From Escherichia phage T5, in sequence record AY587007.1: a stretch of 64,000 nt of DNA, one strand, 5' to 3'. A program made the translations under genes and the position numbers. Below, one piece after another: positions 1 through 10,855 of the stretch. A model generated the notes under the pieces. The model was not told the origin of the DNA, ran no database searches, and saw only the letters and a program-made list of their open reading frames with translations. Position 1 is the stretch's first letter. Every line of letters starts with the position of its first letter.

Positions 1-69
1 TGTCCACTGCCTCCGGCGAAAATACTTAGTCTGCTAACCGCCACCCCCGTTACTATTACCATGCTAACT

Positions 70-106
70 GTTTCACCCTGCAACCATTTTAATTGCAGGG
101 TGAAAC
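70..106. repeat. perfect hairpin, 14-bp arms GTTTCACCCTGCAA / TTGCAGGGTGAAAC with 9-nt loop, just 3' of dmp
   Basis: inverted repeat read directly from the sequence; no U-tract on either strand so not called a terminator. Confidence 0.6.
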
Positions 107-123
107 AATTTCAACTTTAATTA

Positions 124-858
124 TTACGCAACTTTTAATTTCTCAATATATTGTTGCGGGCTGCAACTATATTCTGCGCGTTCTTCTTCGGTCATACCTT
201 CCCAACATAATTGCAGGCGGTCGGCTAGGAACTGATAATCATTATCATCCTCAAGAGATTCATCAATAAAGGTTTCACCTATCAATGTCACGCCGATTGA
301 TAGAATATCATTAACGGCTTGTGCGTCCAGCGTTTTAAATCCGTATGACGCTGCCGCTGATAGCACGCCTTTATGATCATCAATCATTGTAAAATCAGCG
401 TTCGGATATAATTGTTTGAATAGCCCAAAATAGTAACTTTTATAAACTGCGTCTTTGCTGTGGTATATCTCGCTAACTTTATCAGCCTCAAAATATTTGT
501 GTAGTGTATCGCGGGAAAATACACGGATATTACTATCACCACGACCGCGCAACCCTTGTTTACGCAAATAATAATAGTCCGACTTGCTCATTAGTCGAGC
601 GGTGCAAATAATGTTTAAAGTATTTGCGTCATTCATGCACTGGCGCATATATGTAACAAGGGGCAATAGTGTATCTTGCATTATTAAATCATGTTTGCAG
701 GCTTCATTTTTATACTTATTTAAATCTAAATTGCCCTCGCTATCAAAGCAAGGCGCTACACGATGAAACGAATTAATGATAGTGCCGTCCAGATCCCAAA
801 TCATGACGCGGGAAATATGCGGGAAATTACGGGTAATATTCGTTTTAACTTGATTCAT
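124..858 (-). CDS. dmp: 5'-deoxyribonucleotidase (HAD-family phosphatase), T5 dmp-like
   Basis: 244-aa ORF with HAD motif I (WDLDGTIINS); length and position match the T5 pre-early dmp as I recall it. Confidence 0.65.
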   Translation of the reverse strand: MNQVKTNITRNFPHISRVMIWDLDGTIINSFHRVAPCFDSEGNLDLNKYKNEACKHDLIMQDTLLPLVTYMRQCMNDANTLNIICTARLMSKSDYYYLRKQGLRGRGDSNIRVFSRDTLHKYFEADKVSEIYHSKDAVYKSYYFGLFKQLYPNADFTMIDDHKGVLSAAASYGFKTLDAQAVNDILSIGVTLIGETFIDESLEDDNDYQFLADRLQLCWEGMTEEERAEYSCSPQQYIEKLKVA

Positions 859-938
859 TTTGTTACGTTCTCCATTTGAGGGATTAGATTAATTCAGCAT
901 TACCCGCTATTAAATAGCGGGTAATAATAAATTAACTA

Positions 939-1334
939 TTAAAGGCCATACGCTAGCGCATCAGCGATAAAACTAACATCCTCGCCCGATACGCTGGAAC
1001 GAATGCCAGCGCATGTATACACCTTTGCGCTCATTAGCTGATCATCAAGGCAAGCGGGGCAAGGTGCGACTACTGCGAAAGCTAAACCGGATTTTACCGC
1101 GTCAATAATGATTGTTTCCTGTTTCATAGTGTCAACATAAACACCTTTTGCTTTAATATGGCTTGTTAGTTTGCCCTGCATATATGCAAACGTTGTAACT
1201 TGCATCGCGTCATTGAAATCTAATAGCTCATCAATAACGTGACCGGCCTCGACGTGATAACGCTGACCATTAGAATAAACCAGAACAATAGAAGACTGAG
1301 CGCGATCGAATGGGATACGGTTAGATTTAGCCAT
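939..1334 (-). CDS. hypothetical pre-early protein
   Basis: 131-aa ORF co-oriented with dmp/A1, ATG start, no recognisable motif. Confidence 0.45.
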   Translation of the reverse strand: MAKSNRIPFDRAQSSIVLVYSNGQRYHVEAGHVIDELLDFNDAMQVTTFAYMQGKLTSHIKAKGVYVDTMKQETIIIDAVKSGLAFAVVAPCPACLDDQLMSAKVYTCAGIRSSVSGEDVSFIADALAYGL

Positions 1335-1370
1335 GTTTATAACTCCAATTAGTTTAATAAGGGATTTAAT

Positions 1371-1649
1371 TTATTTGCTAGCTTCAAGACTTACAACAAA
1401 AGCGAGATTTGTTTCTTTCCATACGTCAGGAATATCATTTTCCTGTAAATGGTCTTTCGCTTCATACTCATTTTCAAAAGAATAAAAATCGCCGGACTCA
1501 ATTATATAAATATGCCCGTTTAGTTCATTTTGATAAATATAACAATTATTATCTTTTAAATTGCGGTATACAGTACCATGCCGTAAAACATCAAGCGACC
1601 ATGTATCAGCGGTGTTTTTCATGCTGGGAAGATTAATTTTAATAGCCAT
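1371..1649 (-). CDS. hypothetical pre-early protein
   Basis: 92-aa ORF in tight minus-strand array. Confidence 0.4.
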   Translation of the reverse strand: MAIKINLPSMKNTADTWSLDVLRHGTVYRNLKDNNCYIYQNELNGHIYIIESGDFYSFENEYEAKDHLQENDIPDVWKETNLAFVVSLEASK

Positions 1650-1705
1650 TTAATTTAGCTCCTGTAATAGCGGCTATATCTCAAGCCGCTAGGGGAATAA
1701 TTTAA

Positions 1706-3289
1706 TTACGCAAAGAATTTACCATTCTTAAAGTCAATCAAAGTGCGTTGACCGTTTGCATAGGTAATAATATGCGTTTGAGTCCAGCTAGACGCGCCAA
1801 CGTTGTAACCCATGTCCAGACTACCAGTCACGCCAGCGGTATAAACGCCGCCGTAAATGCTGGCGGTGTGGGTGTGTCCGGTGTTTAATTTGCCCAATTT
1901 CTTAAACTGTTTCGGGTTGCCACGGCTCCCGTTAATGCCGTTGTGACCGTGTACGCCGCATTCAATGCCTGCAATCTTGAAAGATTGGTCAGTGGTCAGG
2001 AAAATGGCGTTAAATTCACAGCCTGCAACCTTGCGCAGCGCATAATCAAGCACGTTAAAAGTATCGTCTTTTTCTGCAATAGCTCCATAAATCGCAGCAT
2101 TCAGGCGGTGATATAGTTCCGCGTTTGCTGGGTCGTCTTTAATGTTAGCATTACGATCATCTAACCAGCGGGATAGCGCCAGATCATGATTAGATTCAAC
2201 AATGATTGTTTGAGAAAAATCACGCTCCATTGATTCCAGTACGCGCCCCGTATCGATAAGATCATCTAATACCTTATCACGTCCGGCGGCATATTGTTTC
2301 GCTAGGAATACGCCAGATGCGCGGTTGTGATGGTTGCGTGATGTAAAATCATGCACGTCGTGTACAAACTGATATTTTGGTTTAAGAATATCAACAAGCC
2401 CGTAGGTGTCACCATGCCCCCAAGACGCAGCGGCGCACTCCTCATCTAATTTTTCAGCGTGAATGTCGCCATATTGTAAACCTAAAACGTGCCCCGTTGT
2501 TTCATAACATCCGGCAGGAGTGGCGCAAGTATTCAAATCATAAAACACGCCGCTCTCGTCCATCGTTTCAAGCTGGCGCACAAAAAACTCACCGTCCTCG
2601 TCAAACTCAACAATAAGCGCACCGAAGTTATGCAGCGCCTCGGCCTTTTGTCCTGCTTTCTGCTGGATGTAATTTTTTAGCGTTGCCGTTCCGGTTGAAT
2701 ACATACGGCGCACAATTTCACCTTTTAAAGCTGGCACGCTTTCGGCGGTGATTTTAGCCGCTCCAATTGCTAGACCTTCAAGATTCAGCGCGGTTGCAGT
2801 TTCAGCGAATCCAGAAAGCGGATAATCTGCGGTGGGTAAAACGTTAATTTCAGCCATGAAAGCAAATCGGCGATTATTTAAAAACACGTTTTTATTGCAG
2901 ATATATTTGTCAAATGCGGAATCGTATCTGATACCGTCGGCGCCCTCGCCATTTTGAAAACCGTTTTTGTTATAGATAAACTTGCTAACCAGCAAATCAG
3001 CGCCGATAAATTGGGCGTATTGTTCAAGTGAGGCTAAAAAGTTTTTATGCGGGAACGTATTATTCTGAATCGATGTAATAATAAAGCGTTTACCTTGTTT
3101 TACTTCCCATTGCTCAACCGTGCTAGAAACAATCCCCGCCGCTTCTGGGCGCTCATCGTTTTTAATGGCTTTTGCTACTTTCGCCGCTTTCGGTTTCGCT
3201 GGTTTATTTGCTTCCAGCCAGTCACAAATTGCGGTAGAGTGTTTTGTTGTATCGTAAACCATTTTTGAAATATCGTCGCAAACTTCCAT
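1706..3289 (-). CDS. A1: A1-like pre-early protein with metallophosphoesterase-type motifs
   Basis: 527-aa ORF containing GDIH ... GHGD ... SNHD motifs typical of calcineurin-like phosphoesterases; position next to dmp and an A2-like gene. Confidence 0.55.
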   Translation of the reverse strand: MEVCDDISKMVYDTTKHSTAICDWLEANKPAKPKAAKVAKAIKNDERPEAAGIVSSTVEQWEVKQGKRFIITSIQNNTFPHKNFLASLEQYAQFIGADLLVSKFIYNKNGFQNGEGADGIRYDSAFDKYICNKNVFLNNRRFAFMAEINVLPTADYPLSGFAETATALNLEGLAIGAAKITAESVPALKGEIVRRMYSTGTATLKNYIQQKAGQKAEALHNFGALIVEFDEDGEFFVRQLETMDESGVFYDLNTCATPAGCYETTGHVLGLQYGDIHAEKLDEECAAASWGHGDTYGLVDILKPKYQFVHDVHDFTSRNHHNRASGVFLAKQYAAGRDKVLDDLIDTGRVLESMERDFSQTIIVESNHDLALSRWLDDRNANIKDDPANAELYHRLNAAIYGAIAEKDDTFNVLDYALRKVAGCEFNAIFLTTDQSFKIAGIECGVHGHNGINGSRGNPKQFKKLGKLNTGHTHTASIYGGVYTAGVTGSLDMGYNVGASSWTQTHIITYANGQRTLIDFKNGKFFA

Positions 3290-3471
3290 TTAGTAGCGCG
3301 CAGACGTTTACCGTAGAAATTAAAGTCAGCGGCCATTTTCAGGATAACGGTTTGTTTTTCTGCGGAAATAACCATAATAATAAAACTCCATTAAAGGGAT
3401 TAAAAAACGTTTGTTATTGGCAATATTGCCAAATATAACGCCTTGAATAATAGGCGTTATAATTTGCAACA

Positions 3472-3669
3472 TTAATTTAAAGGCATAAGGCTAGAACTAA
3501 CACCACAAGCAACGGCGGCAATAAAACAAATCAGACCTAAACGCTTTGCTAACTTAGATTTACGTTTAAAATAATACGAATCTAAATCATTTTGAAAATA
3601 AGCGAACAATAACGAGGCCGCCATAATAAACAAGCCTAGAATGAGGGATTCAGTAGGGTAAAAGATCAT
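3472..3669 (-). CDS. small membrane protein
   Basis: 65-aa ORF with two hydrophobic segments. Confidence 0.35.
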   Translation of the reverse strand: MIFYPTESLILGLFIMAASLLFAYFQNDLDSYYFKRKSKLAKRLGLICFIAAVACGVSSSLMPLN

Positions 3670-3725
3670 TTTAAAACTCCAGTCAAAGGGAAATTATAGT
3701 GGGGAATATTCCCCACTAATTAAAT

Positions 3726-4133
3726 TTATTCGCCTGCGGCTTGTTTTACTTCATCGGCAACGCCTAACAGTTGCGCCACGGCGTCCAGCGTTTCCAATTT
3801 TGCACTTTCCAGTGATGCCAGATCGTCAGCGTCTTTGATAATACCGGAATCGATGGCATGTTTTGCAATCACACGCACGTAGTGCGCTTTGCGGATAGAA
3901 CTGCCGCCGCCAACCTTGCGAGGTTTATCGCTTTTCTGATACGCTTTCGCGCTGGTCAATTTTGAGCGAACAGACACGGGAGAAGCCGCGCCAACTGCTT
4001 TTGCAATCTCTTTTAAACCGTCGCTATTTGCGAAATCTAAACCGTTTTCATTAATTAACTGCTGGTACATGGAAACAGCTTTCTGAGTGTTTTCTTCATT
4101 CCAAGCGAATTTTGCGGTTTTAGCGTTAGTCAT
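3726..4133 (-). CDS. A2-like small pre-early protein
   Basis: 135-aa ORF immediately upstream of A1 in transcription order; size fits T5 A2 (~15 kDa); identity is positional inference only. Confidence 0.4.
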   Translation of the reverse strand: MTNAKTAKFAWNEENTQKAVSMYQQLINENGLDFANSDGLKEIAKAVGAASPVSVRSKLTSAKAYQKSDKPRKVGGGSSIRKAHYVRVIAKHAIDSGIIKDADDLASLESAKLETLDAVAQLLGVADEVKQAAGE

Positions 4134-4228
4134 GATGTAACTCCTGTTTATTTAATTTAAGGGATAAGATTAACATAATGTTAATCGTTATATCCCCCGA
4201 ACTACTGGGGGATATAAAAGTAACACTA

Positions 4229-4480
4229 TTACGCTACGGCTTCCCATTTTTCGTTACGCTGGGCAACCTTTACAACGTCGCCGGATTTAACCCGAACGTT
4301 GTAAACAGTTTTTCCGTTGTTACTCCGTTCCGTTTCAGCGTATACCGCATCAATTACATCAAACGGCATAAGCGCCGCGCCTTTAATGCGTTCGGTTTTT
4401 CCGGTTACCTCATCCGTTTTAGTAACGAAAGGGATAAAAACGGATTGACCAATTTTTGGCGCAGTAGTAACGTTTTGCAT
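4229..4480 (-). CDS. hypothetical protein
   Basis: 83-aa ORF. Confidence 0.4.
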   Translation of the reverse strand: MQNVTTAPKIGQSVFIPFVTKTDEVTGKTERIKGAALMPFDVIDAVYAETERSNNGKTVYNVRVKSGDVVKVAQRNEKWEAVA

Positions 4481-4713
4481 AATATAAACTCCAGTTTATT
4501 AAGGGGGATTGTTCCGCATTACCTGCTGTAAAAGTAGTGGCAGGTAATAAGCAACAATCCGCTCGCCAATATAATCAATTTAAAGAACTCCACTCAGGCC
4601 GCTATATCCCAGTTAGGGGGCGGGACACATTATGGTAAGTGCCGACCGTCATATTTTATCAAGTTATCGCTCTCATCGAACTGGGTACATCTTAAAGCCT
4701 ATCGGCTAGGGTG

Positions 4714-4917
4714 TCAAACTATTTTTTGCAGTTTTTTATGATTTTCTTTCAAGTCAATCATAATGTTTCGCCAGATCATTTCCAGACCTTGCTGGCGGCC
4801 TTTCTTGTACTGCCTAAATCGATATTTTACCGATTGCTGGGCTATTGTCAACAATTTTTTAGTAGTACCATCTAATTTTTTAGCTGGTTTACCAGTGATC
4901 AATAAAGTTTGTTTCAT
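4714..4917 (-). CDS. hypothetical basic protein
   Basis: 67-aa lysine/arginine-rich ORF. Confidence 0.3.
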   Translation of the reverse strand: MKQTLLITGKPAKKLDGTTKKLLTIAQQSVKYRFRQYKKGRQQGLEMIWRNIMIDLKENHKKLQKIV

Positions 4918-5504
4918 ATCGTCGATTCCTTATAATATATAAGTTTACCGCCGATAGACTTTAAGATGTACCCAATTTTTAAAGAGCGTGGCGGTAAACT
5001 TCCCGCCGTGTAGTTCGTCATTGCCGCCCTACGAGATAAATAATAGGGGATACCCAAAAATGGCGCAACCTTATTTTTGTAAAGAAACGTAAAGAAGGCA
5101 ACACGTCCGGCGCTCACCTAAGTTTAAAGGAAACGGGCGCGCGAATACCATAAAACCTAGCAGGTTGGCAAGTAATTTTTTCCTTTATATTTGCCTTGCC
5201 CTAGTTGACAAATCTTAGAAAGCTCGTGGTGACGATAAACGGGTTATCCCCTTATGATGGGATGCCTGAAAAATTTACCGCGTCAGAAAGCGTTTTAGGC
5301 GGCTTATTTTCGATTTAACAAATATTTAACAAAAGCAAAATTGAAAAATAGTTGGAAAAGATATTGACTTTTAAAAATCAAGACTAAACGAGTTATTTTA
5401 TAAAATTAATTAATTGACAATTCCAAATTCAGCTTTTTTAGTTTCTACCCATAATAATAACTCTTGTAAATCATAACCTGATTTACTAACACTTTTGTTA
5501 CTAG

Positions 5505-5853
5505 TAGGATCTTTAACTATAGCGCGCAAATAGTTTCTTCCGGTTATTATCAACTCTAGAACCATTATAATAGATATGCTTAGGCAACTTATTAGCACGG
5601 TTACGATCATTATGATCGATTGTTAGATTGCTATCAATCTCACCATTAAATAATACCCATATTATTCTATGCACTGCGTATGTTCGCCTGCTAACTTTAC
5701 TCGATAGTAACCTGTGTTACTATAATGCCCTGCAATATCACCCACCTTACTATTACCTTTCTGTACTTTCCATCTTAGAAATGATGGGGATGTTTCATCA
5801 TAATAAAAGTTATCATTAGCAAGCGAATAATCTATATCTTTAAATAGACCCAT
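5505..5853 (-). pseudogene. frameshifted HNH homing-endonuclease gene
   Basis: N-terminal part (5662-5853) ends at a stop; the HNH core (HRIIW ... TIDHNDRNRANKL) continues in a different frame down to ~5505, so one indel near 5660-5690 splits the gene. Confidence 0.5.
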
Positions 5854-6042
5854 TGTTATAGTTTCCTTATGTTATTAATTTAATCTCTATTATATTATAT
5901 CAAAACCATTAGCAAACTACCTAATGAGTTTTTCAGGTTTAATTAGCAGACTCATAATCACTTTAAAATCCTATTAGCCAACTAACTATATTTTGTTATA
6001 TAATAACTGCATAAATTAGTTAGTGAGAAACACTATCATTTA

Positions 6043-6051
6043 AGTTATCCA
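6043..6051 (+). promoter_or_regulatory. DnaA-box consensus TTATCCACA
   Basis: exact 9-mer match; second exact copy at 6116-6124. Confidence 0.5.
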
Positions 6052-6115
6052 CAGCCTTATACATTTTGTAAATTAACTTGACACAATAGGAAGGCTTTAT
6101 AGCACTTTTACACAG

Positions 6116-6124
6116 ACTTATCCA
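6116..6124 (+). promoter_or_regulatory. DnaA-box consensus TTATCCACA
   Basis: exact 9-mer match. Confidence 0.5.
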
Positions 6125-6132
6125 CAGGTTAT

Positions 6133-6152
6133 TCCACTGTATAAATATACAG
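6133..6152. promoter_or_regulatory. LexA (SOS) box-like palindrome CACTGTATAAATATACAGGG
   Basis: core CTGT-N8-ACAG with AT-rich spacer; weaker flanks than the partner at 9330-9349. Confidence 0.4.
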
Positions 6153-6416
6153 GGTAAATGGAAGACATATTATAATGATGCCCAAAATAAGCGGCCTAAA
6201 ACGCTTTCTAACGAGCCAAACGCTATAGGGTAATATTAAAGTAAAGCCTCACGCGTCGCCTGGTGGCTTCGCCGTGTTTTGCTCTTTACTATACCGCTGC
6301 GCGGTTAGCATAAAACTAGGCGCTAGGCAAGGAAAATAAAAAGGTAAAATAATATTTGCCTATGCTAGAAAATTACCTTTATCATTCACTCACCGATTAA
6401 CGAGGGAGGCCAACAA

Positions 6417-7154
6417 ATGCGGCTATATAAACCAGATAACGCAACCGTCTTAAAGGGCGCCTTGCGCAACCTGCTGGATGGTAGCAGGACAACCAGCATT
6501 AAACATTTTATTAACAAGGCTGAAACTATTCACCAAAACTTTTTTAATGATTATGATGCCTATGATATGGATAGTTTTCTACCCCTATATAAGCAGGGGG
6601 CAACGATTATCTTATATAATCGTGATTGCCATATCTTTACGGGCAGGGGAGCGGGGCCGGATACTGATTTTATTGTTGCGCAGGGTAATAATATCGTTGC
6701 GTATCATAGCAATTCAGGCCGTCAATCATTTAATATAAATAATTTTGAGCTTGTTGGGCTTGAATTAATAAACGGACTTTCTAGCCTTGAGGGATTTTTA
6801 GATGTTATCTGGAAGTATTTATCTGCTGGATGGCATAGACCTGATAGTGATGGATCTCAATATACGGCTGTAATGGCTTTTGATGGCGACGGTAATTTTT
6901 TATTACCATCGGAATTATATCCGTATGTATATAATGAGCTAGTACAAGAAGCGGGTTTTATTTTCTGGAAAGATGAGAATCAGATCATTGACAACACGGA
7001 AAAACATGCTGTAAATTCTAACACTCAAAGCGTTAACACTCAAATCACTGAAAACAAAGGAAAAAATGCCATGACCAAGATCGCTAATATCGTTGCCGCT
7101 AATAAATCCGCCGTTGTAAATGCTGCAAAACTGGAAGCGGGCAAATTGCATTAA
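6417..7154 (+). CDS. hypothetical protein
   Basis: 245-aa ORF with strong RBS GAGGGAGG 7 nt upstream of ATG; first gene of the plus-strand block between the inverted repeats. Confidence 0.55.
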   Translation: MRLYKPDNATVLKGALRNLLDGSRTTSIKHFINKAETIHQNFFNDYDAYDMDSFLPLYKQGATIILYNRDCHIFTGRGAGPDTDFIVAQGNNIVAYHSNSGRQSFNINNFELVGLELINGLSSLEGFLDVIWKYLSAGWHRPDSDGSQYTAVMAFDGDGNFLLPSELYPYVYNELVQEAGFIFWKDENQIIDNTEKHAVNSNTQSVNTQITENKGKNAMTKIANIVAANKSAVVNAAKLEAGKLH

Positions 7155-7192
7155 CTCAAATCACGAAAGTAGCGGCTAAAAAAGCACCATTT

Positions 7193-7426
7193 ATGATTAA
7201 AGGTTATATTGATACGCCTATTGGTCGGGTAGTTATTGCTAACCTGCTGAGCGTAGCGGTTGACCAGTACGCCCCTAGCAACCAAAAGGCGAAAGCGGTA
7301 GCGGGTGCAGCTATGGAAGCGGCTATGCTAGAAATGGTGCAAAGTTTTAACATCGCTGAAATGATTGATGAAATGGTGAAAGGTATTGATATTTCTACTT
7401 TTACCGTTAACACCGAAAGCGAGTAA
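7193..7426 (+). CDS. hypothetical protein
   Basis: 77-aa ORF, weak RBS. Confidence 0.3.
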   Translation: MIKGYIDTPIGRVVIANLLSVAVDQYAPSNQKAKAVAGAAMEAAMLEMVQSFNIAEMIDEMVKGIDISTFTVNTESE

Positions 7427-7544
7427 TAATTAACCTAATGTAAAGTTTTGTAAAGGTCGCCATAATCGGCGGCCTTTTTTGTTATAATGCCTTTACACCG
7501 TTTGAGGACGGTTGAAAATTTTCCCAAAATTTTGGAGGCTTAAA

Positions 7545-7775
7545 ATGGTTGCTTATTCTTCTTCTGACGCTCTTTTCACTGGAAAAGGCTGGGTATCAAA
7601 TCGCTGGATCATTCAAGAAATGGTGCAGGAGTTCGGCATTGCTAAAACTTACACTACCATTCAGGCGCTTTATGATAATGATCAAATCGATCAGCAAACG
7701 GCGGGCTTTTTGCTGGATACCCTGAAAGCGGAACACTGTACTAAAAAACAAGCCGCCAAAATTGTTTTAATGTAA
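7545..7775 (+). CDS. hypothetical protein
   Basis: start moved to internal ATG preceded by GGAGG; 76 aa. Confidence 0.45.
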   Translation: MVAYSSSDALFTGKGWVSNRWIIQEMVQEFGIAKTYTTIQALYDNDQIDQQTAGFLLDTLKAEHCTKKQAAKIVLM

Positions 7776-7824
7776 TTAATAACGGGGCGTTACTTTCGCC
7801 CCACTAACTAGGGGAGTATTACAA

Positions 7825-8004
7825 ATGGTTATTTTTCGAGCTATTCTGGCAGGTATCTTGGGCGCTATTCTGACCCTTTTTGCTACCGCTTACGGTATTC
7901 AAGATTCTTATTGTGGTTTAGTAAATACTAAACCTATGGTTATTATTGGCGCGGGTATCGCTGTATTTTCTTATCTGCTGGGCTGCATGAATAAAGGAGA
8001 ATAA
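7825..8004 (+). CDS. small membrane protein (59 aa)
   Basis: ORF below the track size cut-off; RBS GGGGAG; two hydrophobic helices. Confidence 0.4.
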   Translation: MVIFRAILAGILGAILTLFATAYGIQDSYCGLVNTKPMVIIGAGIAVFSYLLGCMNKGE

Positions 8005-8006
8005 AA

Positions 8007-8219
8007 ATGATCCGCAACGTTTCTCTTGCTCGTTCAAAGGGTTTTAAGCTGGTGGATGTTAACACATTCGAGCGGGAAGATTGTAAAATCGAATATGTAG
8101 CACGTAATAAAAACGCCTTTCGTGTTACAGAAAAGAAATTTGATAAGCGCGGCAACGTGATAGCTGAAACGGTTAAACATTTTGCCACCTTTTACGCGGC
8201 TTTTCGTGGAGTGTTATAA
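8007..8219 (+). CDS. hypothetical protein
   Basis: 70-aa ORF with RBS AAGGAG. Confidence 0.45.
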   Translation: MIRNVSLARSKGFKLVDVNTFEREDCKIEYVARNKNAFRVTEKKFDKRGNVIAETVKHFATFYAAFRGVL

Positions 8220-8220
8220 A

Positions 8221-8565
8221 ATGGTAATTTATGAAGGCAATCGCTTTGTTGCTATTTGCCGACCGGGATTATTAGCAAACTACTTAAATCAGGTGTCACC
8301 TGAATATAAAGGCGTCATTAATATTTATGAGGGCAAGGCGCATTATAAGATTAATGCGGTCGTTGCCCGTGAATTAGCATTTCAATTTTTGACTTTCGCA
8401 TCTTGTGATATTCAGGTCATGGGTGAAGCGTTAATTGCAGAAAATGAAGATGATTTTATTAATATCTTCCGCAAGGTATACACCGAGCGCCTGATAATGA
8501 AAGGCGCATATATTCAGTCAACTGCGGAAAGTATTGAAACAGCTTTCAGAAAGGTGGCGCAATGA
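8221..8565 (+). CDS. hypothetical protein
   Basis: start moved to ATG at 8221 preceded by GGAG; 114 aa. Confidence 0.45.
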   Translation: MVIYEGNRFVAICRPGLLANYLNQVSPEYKGVINIYEGKAHYKINAVVARELAFQFLTFASCDIQVMGEALIAENEDDFINIFRKVYTERLIMKGAYIQSTAESIETAFRKVAQ

Positions 8566-8664
8566 AGCTATATATTTTCGTTGGTAATGTTGAGGCTGCG
8601 AATGATTCCGCTGGTGGCGATAACGTTCGCCACTATTGGCAAAAATATATTTACTAGGGTTATT

Positions 8665-8859
8665 ATGATTACACTGATTTGCGTTAAAGCCGAAGGCGAC
8701 ACGATAGCGCGAGAAGGGCAAAAATATAAAGCCCAAAAAGATCAATTACTCAAAACAATTGAGCGTTACAAAATACCCGATCTCAAGTATTCCGTAGTAG
8801 GACGCGATGGGATTCTAAGGGCGACACTTGAGAACGCTATCTTTGAGATAGTCAACTAA
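8665..8859 (+). CDS. hypothetical protein
   Basis: 64-aa ORF from internal ATG; weak RBS. Confidence 0.3.
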   Translation: MITLICVKAEGDTIAREGQKYKAQKDQLLKTIERYKIPDLKYSVVGRDGILRATLENAIFEIVN

Positions 8860-8874
8860 TAACGGGGCGTTATT

Positions 8875-9078
8875 ATGAGCAATAAAATTATTGTGACCAA
8901 AACTACCACAATGGTAGACGTTTTTTATGTGCCCGATACGCCGGAGAATCGGGGAGCGGTCGAGCGGGGCGAGTATGATAGCGTTATTTATGATGCCGAT
9001 GGTTATTATCAGCATTTGGTCGATTCCTACGGGGAAGAGGAGAAGATCACGCATCGATTACCCGAGGGGGATTTATGA
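8875..9078 (+). CDS. hypothetical protein
   Basis: 67-aa ORF. Confidence 0.3.
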   Translation: MSNKIIVTKTTTMVDVFYVPDTPENRGAVERGEYDSVIYDADGYYQHLVDSYGEEEKITHRLPEGDL

Positions 9079-9329
9079 AACGATGGTTTAATCACTGGTA
9101 TAAACGGTTTTTAGTACGGCATCGCAAGTCTAGACAGCAAGATGATTGGCGGGAAATGGCCAAGCGTAACAATTGCCCACTTCTCTGATAACCGACGGGG
9201 ATCAGCTCCCCGTTTTTCACGCCTCCAGTTAAATCCCCCTTTGTTTTAGTATCCCCATCAAAATTAAACGCGTTAGAATGCGATCTAGGACGTTTTAGGC
9301 ATATATTAGAATTATTCACTGCGTAGGAA

Positions 9330-9349
9330 TACTGTATAAATATACAGTA
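9330..9349. promoter_or_regulatory. near-consensus LexA (SOS) box TACTGTATAAATATACAGTA
   Basis: 19 of 20 positions match the E. coli consensus TACTGTATATATATACAGTA. Confidence 0.55.
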
Positions 9350-9430
9350 GGATAACCTGGGGATAAGTCTGTTGATAACGCTTCAAAATGGCTAGGATTT
9401 TGTCAAGGCGAATCGTGCTGTTGATAAGTC

Positions 9431-9439
9431 TGTGGATAA
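9431..9439 (-). promoter_or_regulatory. DnaA box (TGTGGATAA, reverse complement of TTATCCACA)
   Basis: exact 9-mer; two one-mismatch copies (TTATCAACA) nearby at about 9371 and 9421. Confidence 0.5.
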
Positions 9440-9466
9440 CTTAAATAACAGTGTTTCTCACTTCCG

Positions 9467-9620
9467 TTTTTAAATACGAATCATTATCATTCGTATTCCG
9501 CTTTTTAAATGAGAATCATTCCGCTTTTTAAATGAGAATCATTTCACTTCCTGAATAGTTCTCATTCCCTTTCTTAAATGAGAATCATTATCATTTGCAT
9601 TTCACTTTTTAAATGAGATT
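9467..9620. repeat. five tandem-ish direct repeats of TTTTTAAATGAGAATCATT (variants included)
   Basis: copies at about 9467, 9502, 9525, 9571 and 9596; interleaved with the palindromic unit GAATCATTATCATTCG. Confidence 0.65.
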
Positions 9621-9672
9621 GATTCTCATTATCATTCGCATTCAGGCGAGCAGGCAATTGCCCTGCGCTTTT

Positions 9673-10409
9673 GTGCAAATCCGACATTTGCCCCCATGGA
9701 TTACGCGTGGGCGTGTATGTGCAAATCCGACAATTTTTGGTAGTGTGCGAATCCGACCCGAAAAATTTTTATAGTGTGCAAATCCGACAATGAATTTTCC
9801 CAAAAACTCCAGCAATCACGAACTGCGTTCGAATCCTGTGGAATTAGCTAGAGTATGTGCAAATCCGACATGTGTTGAGATGTGCGAATCCGACAAGATT
9901 TTTGTGACTTCGATGGGAGGGTGTGTGATTGTATGGGTTTGAGGGGAAGATGAGAGAGCGAGAGAAATTTGGGAGGCTAGAAGGATATGGGCGCAGGATT
10001 GGTGCGGAGCACCTGATTTGCGGGGATTTTGGGGAAGAGTTGAGATAATTTGGGAAGATTTGAGATAGGTGCAGAAAAAGTAAAATTTTATTAGCTAAAG
10101 GGGGCAAAATAGCTTGACAAGTGAAAATTTCTGTGGATCTAAAAACTCAGGCAATCATGGGCCTTCGGCCCGAAATAATGCTGCTATTTTCAGGAGAGTA
10201 AGAGTTCCTAAAAACTTAGGCGTTTGTGCAAATCCGACCATAAATTTCTAGAAACACAATGTGCAAATCCGACAGTAATTTCTGGAAATGTGTTTTCAAA
10301 AAATGTCTTCTAGAAATAACCGCCCTCCCTATAACCGCCCTGTATTAAACCGCCTATTGCTGGAGTTTCTAGGAACATGAAAACTGCCCTAGAGTATGTG
10401 CAAATCCGA
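9673..10409. repeat. nine dispersed copies of the 15-mer TGTGCAAATCCGACA (variant TGTGCGAATCCGAC)
   Basis: copies start at 9673, 9718, 9744, 9775, 9856, 9881, 10225, 10260 and 10397, all same orientation with irregular spacing; tenth copy inside a CDS at 12073. Confidence 0.7.
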
Positions 10410-10855
10410 TGAATATTTTTGTGTGATCCCTAGAATTTATACTTATCAATTTCCTAGAAACTCAGGAGTCTAGAAGAAAGTGTTGTGCCATCCTAGCAGA
10501 TGAGCGGCAACAGGTGTATCATCTTGAATGTAAATTATATGGTCAAAAGTTTTACTTTTATTTTAAATATAAGATCCCCCAGGGTTCTCATATAGAGCTT
10601 TGCCCCCGCCAGAAGGTCTCGTGATGTTTCTAGTAATTTATATTAAATTACTTATTAACTTGTCCTATCGCTCCGTATCCTCCGCTACAAGTTAGTAATT
10701 TTAAATTACTGAACCACCACACCTTCTGTGTGGCAACTCTAAATGGTTAATTCTATTAACTCATAGAGTTATGATAACATACATTTAGCTATCTGTCAAC
10801 GAAAGTTTGTATTTGAGTCTCGGTACAGGTATTGTGCACCGAGATATGCAGAGTA

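Follow-up and report, generated by a model that had tools for sequence, protein, structure and literature searches.

The palindrome that closes the inner end of each of the two inverted repeats around the accessory gene block of phage T5 is, apparently, a near-perfect operator-like site for the host SOS repressor LexA, a detail which seems to have gone unreported. On the grounds of sequence it is roughly an even bet (probability about 0.5) that these repeat arms are docking platforms for host proteins, and that a complex on the right arm is part of the injection-stop apparatus or of an apparatus organising the first-step-transfer (FST) DNA. The best explanation of the arms is that they neither delimit a mobile or invertible cassette nor serve as its promoter-operators. 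With the LexA-operator-like palindrome, the pause in T5 DNA injection gains a new candidate mechanism that can be tested.

The window (the whole stretch of 64,000 nucleotides that was analysed) was 99.8% identical to the records of phage T5. The repeats are the IRC-spacer-IRD and IRD'-spacer-IRC' elements of T5 Repeat Regions 2 and 3, situated at exactly the published coordinates (6022-6152 and 9332-9462; Davison 2020) and shifted by 1-2 nt from those of the original prediction. Compared with the published T5 repeats and injection stop signal the feature is the same in its coordinates, DnaA boxes, 52-nt spacer and variable block, and no structural difference was found. The DnaA boxes of the arms have been in the literature since 1987 (Heusterspreute 1987; Wang 2005; Davison 2015, 2020, with the elements IRC, IRD, IRD', IRC' and palD), both arms were named as candidates for the injection stop signal, iss (Davison 2020), and the literature up to 2026 ties the injection stop to this region, possibly also to host components. 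The supposed overlap with the injection-stop region was borne out as well, the right arm being contained in the annotated iss (record 9140-10149). The observation is real, yet most of it (the repeats, the DnaA boxes and the variable block) was already in print. For the LexA reading of the palindrome the literature search returned no publication; LexA or SOS occurs 0 times in the accessible published accounts of the T5 repeats, where the function of the palindrome is given as unknown, and the published repeat comparisons covered Enterobacterales phages only.

Coordinates of the repeat arms, their candidate protein-binding sites and the enclosed gene block in the window
Feature	Position	Strand	Basis
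Left arm, IRC-spacer-IRD of Repeat Region 2	6022-6152	+	inverted-repeat search; global alignment with right arm; Davison 2020
Exact DnaA box TTATCCACA	6045-6053	+	motif search
TTGACA in the 52-nt spacer	6078-6083	+	TTGACR kept in both arms of T5, Klebsiella and Pectobacterium phages
DnaA-box pair TTTTACACA-gac-TTATCCACA, 3 bp apart; TTTTACACA consensus-class at 6106	6106-6126	+	motif search
Left LexA-operator-like 20-mer CACTGTATAAATATACAGGG, core 6137-6152	6135-6154		motif search
Inner-flank motifs CCTAAAACG and TTCTAACG, left arm	6195-6213	+	sequence inspection; mirrored at 9271-9299
Promoter of gene 011	6333-6411 (record 6411-6489)	+	annotation
Accessory gene block T5.011-T5.017	6417-9078	+	records; ORFs
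Intrinsic terminator after T5.017	9193-9217 (record 9275-9296)	+	annotation; stem plus T-run
Inner-flank motifs CGTTAGAA ... CGTTTTAGG, right arm	9271-9299	-	reverse complement of TTCTAACG ... CCTAAAACG
Right LexA-operator-like 20-mer TACTGTATAAATATACAGTA, core 9332-9347	9330-9349		motif search
Right arm, IRD'-spacer-IRC' of Repeat Region 3, in annotated iss	9332-9462	-	inverted-repeat search; annotation; Davison 2020
DnaA-box-variant pair TTATCAACA-gac-TTATCCCCA, 3 bp apart	9358-9378	-	sequence inspection; described by Davison
DnaA-box pair, 3 bp apart: exact TTATCCACA (9431-9439) and TTATCAACA (9419-9427)	9419-9439	-	motif search

Both arms are 131 nt long and their ends are the conserved parts: the outer ends (6022-6060 and 9424-9462, 39 nt) are 92% complementary and the inner ends (6112-6152 and 9332-9372, 41 nt) 88%, while the full arms match at only ~74% because the 52-nt spacer has diverged. 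From the outside to the inside each arm presents a conserved AGTGAGAAACACT motif, a first pair of DnaA boxes separated by 3 bp, the spacer with TTGACR, a second DnaA-box pair, the LexA-operator-like site 9-11 nt further on, and CTARAACG-type motifs. These inner-flank motifs lengthen the inverted repeat inward, and in every lineage a YCTARAACG-type motif stands again inward of the palindromes. The TTGACA of the spacer has no -10 hexamer at 16-18 nt, thus it does not form a canonical promoter.

The claim of exact DnaA boxes in each arm could be upheld, with two in the left and one in the right: in 64 kb the exact box occurs three times (6045 and 6118 on the plus strand, 9431 on the minus strand) against 0.72 expected, always in the arms, where four of the eight consensus-class boxes (TTWTNCACA) of the 64 kb are also situated. 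One-off variants stand at 9358-9366, 9370-9378 and 9419-9427, and the 3-bp-spaced partner of the box at 6045 is damaged in T5 by a 2-bp deletion, visible in the arm alignment and also noted by Davison. By their sequence these boxes are very good candidate sites for DnaA. Since the T5 origins lie mid-genome and the replication genes have not yet entered the cell at this stage (Davison 2020), no origin function is expected of them, and neither an AT-rich unwinding element nor iterons were identified at the arms. Several high-affinity R-type boxes in close pairs are likewise found in DnaA-box clusters outside replication initiation (datA, transcription blocks, the flanks of P1 oriR), but unlike the datA and P1 oriR type of cluster, that of T5 is coupled to a LexA-like box.

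It was also confirmed that each arm carries a CTGT-N8-ACAG palindrome and that the right one is a single base off the E. coli SOS-box consensus: its 20-mer agrees with TACTGTATATATATACAGTA in 19 of 20 positions. CTGT-N8-ACAG has three matches in 64 kb (0.63 expected), and the two AT-rich cores in the arms share the sequence CTGTATAAATATACAG. On a heterology-type index (lower is better), whose values are approximate as its matrix was built from 25 E. coli SOS boxes known from the literature, the right site scored 0.92 and the left 5.0, against 1.9-11.7 for those 25 boxes; the right site outscores all of them and the left is about level with the recA box. The next best site in the 64 kb reached 11.45 and the best among 200 shuffles 4.13, and the 16-mer would be expected by chance ~4e-5 times per locus. 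In prophage-like contigs an identical 18-mer precedes UmuD-like genes and genes resembling Tum-type anti-repressors by 6-21 nt, and is probably used there as SOS operator. As LexA sites the palindromes match very well, with scores inside the range of proven operators. With E. coli-type SOS boxes (e.g. umuDC, dinD) and with the umuD-like and tum-like operators of prophages the T5 arms share the CTGT-N8-ACAG core, the AT-rich centre and the flanking TA; unlike SOS boxes, they occur without demonstrable promoter overlap, in a strictly virulent phage, paired with DnaA boxes, in two mirrored copies and with AA/TT in the centre.

Alignment with related phages revealed both arms in all 39 related loci compared, i.e. 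a conserved structural feature, an outcome which the original prediction had itself taken to speak against LexA/DnaA regulation. The right arm is the better conserved (88-97% identity, mean column conservation 0.95, against 76-92% for the left), and left and right always agree at 72-79%. All 39 loci retain CTGT...(A/C)CAG in the right arm, the CAG of the left core is intact in 34 and reads ACAA in the other 5, and one My1 arm has CTGG instead of CTGT. The 16-mer core also adjoins DnaA-box pairs in phages of Klebsiella, Pectobacterium, Proteus and Vibrio with an A1 of only 31-42% identity, and the module could thus be traced beyond Enterobacterales, to Vibrio phages. Sites of index 0.9-5.7, over a background of at least 11, occur in phages of these four groups at A1 identities of 31-72%; as non-coding DNA would be randomised at that distance, the persistence of the palindrome counts in favour of a LexA operator. 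The order of DnaA pair, 9-11 nt and palindrome is preserved in T5, Stubb and AG74, and a second palindrome, this one without DnaA boxes, is present in the 'Type 4' phage Stubb, published as having no left arm. The centre is AA or TT, interchanging freely from arm to arm and from phage to phage, as is expected of the site of a symmetric dimer; the TA of a perfect LexA consensus never occurs there. Vibrio phage L051 has kept the DnaA pair and lost the outer palindrome, consequently the phages can do without the palindrome. In the phages with an annotated terminal repeat (T5, My1, Stubb) the right arm lies ~0.1-1 kb inside the inner end of that repeat.

The enclosed genes behave differently. All ORFs between the arms are on the plus strand and the flanking dmp, A1, A2, hegG and T5.018 on the minus strand, so the strand switch described originally stands, whereas its eight small ORFs are seven genes in the records (T5.011-T5.017), and T5.011, with 336 aa in other sequence versions, is not small; the count of eight arose because a 1-nt difference at 7142 splits T5.011 in this version. 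The gene content of the block is hypervariable among relatives, as already published; My1 and the Klebsiella phage have differently directed genes between the arms, and the My1, Klebsiella and L041 lineages carry the homologue of T5.011 on the opposite strand. T5 remains viable when a deletion from hegG to 017 takes away left arm and block, thus both are dispensable for viability.

The better conservation of the right arm, its position near the inner end of the terminal repeat, the variable gene orientation and the deletability of left arm and block suggest an architectural rather than a cassette-regulatory role. In the model that we favour, FST DNA would enter an uninduced cell, where resident DnaA and LexA would fill the high-affinity sites within seconds. 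The right arm would lie just inside the transfer-pause point, and the nucleoprotein complex formed there might belong to the apparatus that stops injection or organises the FST DNA, to be overcome later by the A1 and A2 proteins. The left arm would be an auxiliary copy, dispensable in the laboratory, and the variable accessory genes would merely fill the interval between the two platforms. Against such a role it must be said that LexA is cytoplasmic, and it is hard to see how LexA on DNA already inside would halt the DNA trailing behind. In recA1 strains LexA cannot be cleaved, yet T5 grows on such hosts (DH5alpha, for instance), so cleavage of LexA is not needed. Host-factor screens including T5 reported only receptor-related genes.

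A more far-reaching form of the docking model, to which we give a low probability, would make host global regulators the brake itself: LexA and DnaA, perhaps with a Fur-family protein on the adjacent TGAGAAT-N-ATTCTCA repeats, would load on the entering right arm and form the pause block, and A1/A2 would remove it or cut past it. As the SOS response destroys LexA, how strong the pause is, or how long it lasts, would then vary with the state of DNA damage in the host. If true, the two-step DNA delivery of the T5 family would use host global regulators as a brake.

Alternatively, a conserved phage protein may bind the palindrome and restart the stalled transfer, most plausibly dimeric DNA-binding A2 (alone or with A1), the likeness of the site to LexA boxes being incidental or reflecting competition with LexA; we regard this as unlikely. 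A2 is conserved in every lineage with the palindrome. At the inner ATA..TAT positions the palindrome varies less than host SOS boxes do, and less than LexA is known to require, the centre never takes the consensus TA, and a variant with one broken half-site (ATGT), ATGTATAAATATACAGTA, recurs in two distant lineages, in My1 and in Vibrio phages; this recurrence and invariance suggest an additional or different reader of the palindrome. Agreement with the LexA consensus in 19 of 20 positions, the flanking TA included, would, however, hardly arise by accident, the same 18-mer stands as SOS operator in prophages, and LexA would occupy such a site regardless. The predicted model of A2 (pLDDT 85) is all-helical, resembles neither LexA nor any solved DNA-binding protein to a significant degree (best E = 0.46), and speaks neither for nor against specific binding.

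It is improbable, too, that each palindrome is the operator of a promoter directed into the block, through which LexA (and DnaA) would silence the cassette or an antisense RNA until SOS induction; the host LexA/DnaA control proposed at the outset was not sustained. The palindrome does hold -10-like TATAAA/TATATT, with TTAYCC in the adjacent DnaA box 15-17 nt upstream (T5, Stubb, AG74; by inspection), mirror-image 9/12 promoter-like matches lie at 6146-6173 (plus) and 9338-9311 (minus) with similar ones in Stubb and L054, and a promoter directed inward from the outer arm of Klebsiella phage Roth37 would point at the main operon of its block. Any consensus LexA box, however, has a TATA-like core, and the matches over the palindromes are weak (8-9/12) and at background frequency (25 found, 18.6 +/- 4.2 expected). 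The promoter of gene 011, experimentally characterised (Annor et al. 2026) and containing a promoter-like TTGCCT-18-TATCAT at 6356-6385, is situated ~180-260 bp (about 200 bp) downstream of the left palindrome. The right arm follows after the block and its intrinsic terminator, and a promoter in it would be antisense in T5; gene orientation differs among lineages, block and left arm can be deleted, and growth in recA1 hosts argues against SOS-dependent control as well. In coliphage 186 (tum), CTXphi, the Bacillus phage GIL01 (gp7-LexA) and the colicin operons a mobile element likewise carries a host LexA operator, through which the SOS repressor is sensed or exploited, as may hold for the operator-like sites of T5. 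Those systems are temperate or plasmid-borne, and LexA represses a defined promoter in them; T5, unlike them, is virulent and has no regulated promoter evident.

Quite improbable is the possibility that the arms are mirror-symmetric transcription barriers, where bound DnaA and LexA would stop RNA polymerase leaving the block and thereby shield the control region of the essential A2-A1 operon to one side and, to the other, the DNA not yet released from the tail or membrane channel. In both arms it is the palindrome that faces the block, the polarity of the DnaA boxes is mirrored, and every lineage has at least one transcription unit running toward the outer arm; complexes on DnaA boxes of E. 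coli are said, from the work of Schaefer and Messer in 1988-89, to stop RNA polymerase in an orientation-dependent manner. Nevertheless, the intrinsic terminator of T5 already precedes the right palindrome by ~115 nt, no transcription is known to run leftward into the T5 left arm, and the near-uniform conservation of the 52-nt spacer of the right arm would be left unexplained.

The idea of an invertible or transposon-like module with its own terminal inverted repeats, raised originally for its strand-switched block between such repeats, is already largely refuted and hardly credible: no block protein has a recombinase or transposase domain (Pfam and PHROGs), inspection found no target-site duplication and differing outer flanks, every one of the 239 matches to block genes in 36 close relatives has the same strand, and left arms cluster with left and right with right, i.e. 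without exchange between them. Arms conserved around varying content are the opposite of a mobile element. Acquisition from elsewhere fared no better, as the GC of the block (0.39-0.44) is like that of the rest of the FST DNA and the sequence search returned no arm homologue in E. coli genomes or plasmids. A composite transposon or island was rejected for the lack of transposase, target-site duplication, foreign composition and donor homologue, and a site-specific invertible segment because no invertase is encoded in the block and only one gene is in opposite orientation, in distant lineages. The Hin, Gin, Cin and Fim segments likewise have inverted repeats around a few kb, but T5 has no invertase gene, its arms are 5x the length of hix/gix, and close relatives have a single orientation. 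The opposite orientation of the T5.011 homologue in the distant lineages indicates that inversion or rearrangement took place at least once in deep evolution.

The arms, i.e. the two inverted repeats flanking the plus-strand accessory genes T5.011-T5.017 (the block), are, together with their DnaA boxes, an already known structure, and their identity with the published T5 repeats is practically certain. The sequence matches phage T5 at 99.8-99.9% over positions 1-9700, from the left genome end (AY543070, NC_005859, AY692264), and its numbering is that of the AY587007 version used by the T5 repeat literature. According to the Davison 2020 preprint the 52-bp spacer of the arms is invariant, the DnaA boxes (first noted in 1987) are paired at 3-bp spacing, 25 T5-like phages conserve the IRC/IRD repeats and the boxes, the arm-to-arm distance varies, and some lineages read the ORFs of the block in the opposite direction. 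It was proposed there that membrane-bound DnaA grips the DNA at the boxes and constitutes the injection stop, and that both arms possibly form a 'knot'. Later papers on T5 restate the repeats, palindromes and DnaA boxes of the region and say that experiments do not exist. LexA and SOS are not mentioned in the preprint, and no link between them and T5-like phages was found in the literature searched, the older Davison 2015, Wang 2005 and Heusterspreute 1987 being outside its reach; neither the reading of the palindrome as a LexA operator nor its conservation throughout the phage family appears to have been reported.

Positions of the arms and neighbouring features in the T5 window and in related phage loci (L-numbers)
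Feature	Strand	Window position	Related loci	Source or remark
Pre-early genes dmp, A1, A2 ... hegG	minus			T5 record annotation
boxA-like element	minus	4976-4987	L046 10911, 11086; L054 9859; L048 648	
IRB/IRB'		5274-5310 / 6184-6220		37-nt inverted repeat, 86%
hegG differences		5542-5680		75-bp deletion, two 1-nt indels
Left arm		6022-6152		IRC-spacer-IRD (Davison 2020)
Right arm		9332-9462		IRD'-spacer-IRC' (Davison 2020)
Outer complementary ends		6022-6060 / 9424-9462		39 nt, 92%
Inner complementary ends		6112-6152 / 9332-9372		41 nt, 88%
Outermost motif		6022-6034, 9450-9462	L046 about 5375; L045 about 8700	AGTGAGAAACACT
YCTARAACG-type motif		6195-6213, 9271-9299	L044-L048, L054	inner palindrome side
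Hypervariable block		6209-9194		Davison 2020
Promoter		upstream of T5.011		T5 record annotation
T5.011-T5.017, then terminator	plus			T5 record annotation
T5.011 split		7142		1-nt deletion
Reversed T5.011 homologue			L041-L043 about 7600-8900; L045 5909-6871; L044 7191-8156	
Injection stop signal (iss)		about 9061-10070		T5 record annotation (record 9140-10149)
Major nick, end of left terminal repeat		after iss		T5 record annotation
Fur-box-like sites		9574-9598, 9615-9633, 228-252 (inside dmp)	L045 4060; L046 5287	
DRD direct repeats		9669-10418		eight copies
sigma-54-type motifs			L047 376; L048 42, 376; L051 5895, 9289, 9614; L053 6244, 6491; L054 6675, 6922, 9427	
GC-rich motif			L046 10770-10800; L054 9600-9625; L048 385-410	

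Every structural part of the original prediction (repeats, palindromes and DnaA boxes) proved to be real. Alignment of the left with the right arm revealed that both are 131 nt long, with conserved ends, also detected by a repeat finder, around a diverged 52-nt spacer. All three exact TTATCCACA DnaA boxes in the 64 kb fall within the arms (0.72 expected), CTGT-N8-ACAG occurs three times against 0.63 expected, the arms holding both AT-rich copies, and the right-arm 20-mer differs from the SOS-box consensus TACTGTATATATATACAGTA by the single base that had been claimed. The outermost arm motif, itself AGTG-N5-CACT, is kept from T5 to Proteus phage Stubb and to My1, and a sigma-54-like motif stands in its place in Vibrio phages. 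Every palindrome, in all lineages, is accompanied on the side facing the block by two to four YCTARAACG-type motifs (CCTAAAACG, TTCTAACG, TCTAGAACG), for which no matching host-factor site was recognised; with them the inverted repeat reaches beyond the published 131 bp. Relative to AY543070, the HNH endonuclease gene hegG is fragmented and T5.011 (DUF7566) is split into ORFs of 245 and 77 aa; these are strain or sequencing differences. A search of 5800-10500 gave no credible known RNA family.

The palindromes at the inner ends of the arms were scored with a LexA matrix derived from a literature set of 25 E. coli SOS boxes; the index values are approximate. On this scale the right palindrome reached a heterology-type index of 0.92, surpassing all 25 natural boxes (1.9-11.7), and the left one 5.0, about equal to that of recA; the runner-up site in the 64 kb had 11.45 and the best among 200 shuffles 4.13. 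Among IMG/VR contigs the exact 18-mer was found in over 120 stretches, many of them prophage-like, where it lies 6-21 nt 5' of UmuD-like and Tum-type anti-repressor-like genes. Such positions are classic for SOS regulation, and this use of the 18-mer is independent support for the palindrome as a putative LexA operator.

Alignment to relatives, the check suggested originally, showed conservation of the arms, which are present in constant order and orientation in 39 of 39 related IMG/VR loci, but not of the block content. CTGT...(A/C)CAG of the right arm is retained in all 39 loci and the left palindrome core is intact in 34, while the central AA/TT flips freely. Among close relatives conservation is almost uniform over the whole right arm (0.95), and the variable spacer of the left arm contrasts with its well-kept palindrome (0.97), DnaA boxes and TTGAC.

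The distant relatives are the decisive comparison for the predicted LexA operator. Two perfect sites are present in Klebsiella phage Roth37, TACTGTATAAATACACAGTA and one CTGG variant in Pectobacterium phage My1, TACTGTATAAATATACAGTG and TACTGTATATAATTACAGGG in Stubb (A1 42% identical), TACTGTATATTTATACAGTG in Vibrio phage AG74 (A1 31% identical), 9 nt after TTATCCACA-acc-TTATCCACC, two sites 2.8 kb apart in a pVp-1-like Vibrio phage, and one in Vibrio phage 70E35.5a; their indices are 0.9-5.7 against a background of at least 11 in each phage. Stubb, belonging to Davison's 'Type 4' phages described as having no left arm, and the pVp-1-like phage carry a second palindrome without DnaA boxes at the left-arm position, consequently the palindrome pair is more widespread than the DnaA-box pair.

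We propose, with a probability of about 0.5, that the arms serve host proteins as docking platforms tied to the injection pause or to the organisation of first-step-transfer (FST) DNA. LexA and DnaA would occupy the arm sites, as their well-established affinities imply, and the right arm would contribute to the pause or to the organisation of the first-injected DNA; LexA would thereby be added to Davison's DnaA injection-stop model. Such a role is favoured since the right arm is better conserved than the left and, in the phages with an annotated terminal repeat (T5, My1, Stubb), lies just inside that repeat's inner end, next to the shear point. LexA probably occupies the palindromes in vivo, and a brake role in injection is a tentative and rather doubtful prediction. 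Host-factor screens that include T5 report nothing for dnaA or lexA. Domain searches of A1 found nothing in Pfam or PDB sequences, therefore its metallophosphatase label rests on literature and database annotation. The halt of T5 after 8% of its DNA has been injected is a question more than 50 years old, and papers from 2023 and 2026 call its mechanism unknown. The palindrome as a predicted top-affinity LexA operator provides a second concrete host candidate for this pause, testable with existing lexA(Def), lexA(Ind-) and recA strains and current T5 genome-engineering methods, and together with its conservation turns part of the old question into simple experiments. Should LexA be inactive there, the strict conservation would still point to some conserved factor binding there, worth identifying.

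Three features count against a purely LexA-driven element: the palindrome centre is never TA, the outer palindrome is absent from a Vibrio phage (L051) keeping the DnaA pair, and a half-site-broken variant, ATGTATAAATATACAGTA, recurs in My1 and Vibrio phages. A phage protein such as A2 might be the true reader of the palindrome, which we consider unlikely. The AlphaFold model of A2 (pLDDT 85), checked for LexA-likeness, had no significant structural neighbour in a Foldseek search of the PDB, a result that weighs neither for nor against this reading. An SOS-controlled inward promoter at the palindromes is quite unlikely, and LexA/DnaA control of the cassette, the main functional reading of the original prediction, was not supported. 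Between the left palindrome and the characterised promoter of 011 there are about 200 bp, and the right arm comes after the terminator; when T5, Stubb and a Vibrio phage were scanned for promoters, the palindromes gave weak matches of background frequency, and the strong promoter-like sites were 250-290 bp away. Gene directions also vary: the genes between the arms point outward from the centre in My1, and the majority is reversed in Roth37. That the arms form a transcription barrier is improbable. A T5 mutant with a hegG-to-017 deletion is viable with smaller plaques; because of this span the left arm is necessarily lost, and judging from the gene names the right arm is presumably retained.

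A mobile or invertible module is extremely improbable. Domain searches revealed no recombinase among the block proteins, all 239 block-gene matches from 36 close relatives share one strand, and left and right arms are separate evolutionary lines; the strand check, made in 39 loci, left one ancient rearrangement as the exception. As to acquisition, the GC composition is ordinary and a similarity search of E. coli genomes and plasmids found no counterpart. Reversal of the T5.011 homologue, still between the arms, is confined to the distant My1, Klebsiella-phage and L041 lineages and is the only sign of an inversion-like rearrangement in the block.

Several other elements were observed nearby. 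In every lineage an rrn-type boxA-like element, GCTCTTTAAAAA in T5 and CACCGCTCTTTAACAATTTGG in a Vibrio phage, precedes the A2-A1-dmp operon in sense orientation; it stands about 850 nt before A2 in all T5-like loci, and about 25 nt 3' of a strong promoter-like site in Stubb and L054. The E. coli rrn leader with GCTCTTTAACAA gave 100% matches, the median being 7 places per genome. The element, for which no T5 literature was found, suggests that pre-early transcripts may recruit the host Nus antitermination complex. The direct repeats immediately to the right of the right arm harbour Fur-box-like 7-1-7 palindromes (AATGAGAATCATTATC, TGAGAAT-N-ATTCTCA); allowing up to 3 mismatches to the Fur consensus, the 64 kb has 3 sites where 0.04 are expected, and in 39 relatives the 400 nt beyond the arm on that side show a 23-fold enrichment. 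My1 and Stubb carry them, the Vibrio phages do not, and since they depart from the Fur box by a symmetric G/C change, a different protein may read them. In Vibrio phages of this family the non-coding part of the first-injected DNA has sigma-54-type promoter motifs (TGGCAY-N5-TTGCW), absent from the T5 window, beside the DnaA boxes and palindromes, at 1-3 per locus against about 0.03 expected. A GC-rich motif (TACACGCATACGC / TACACGCGCGC) follows the inner palindrome in Proteus and Vibrio phages. The 25-nt direct repeats published as DRD, with core TGTGCAAATCCGACA, lie on both sides of the point where the left terminal repeat ends, a position that would suit terminal-repeat formation or packaging rather than injection stop. 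Finally, IRB/IRB' pairs DNA immediately inward of the left arm with Repeat Region 1 on the left side of hegG, which supports a presumed insertion of hegG into a formerly continuous repeat region.
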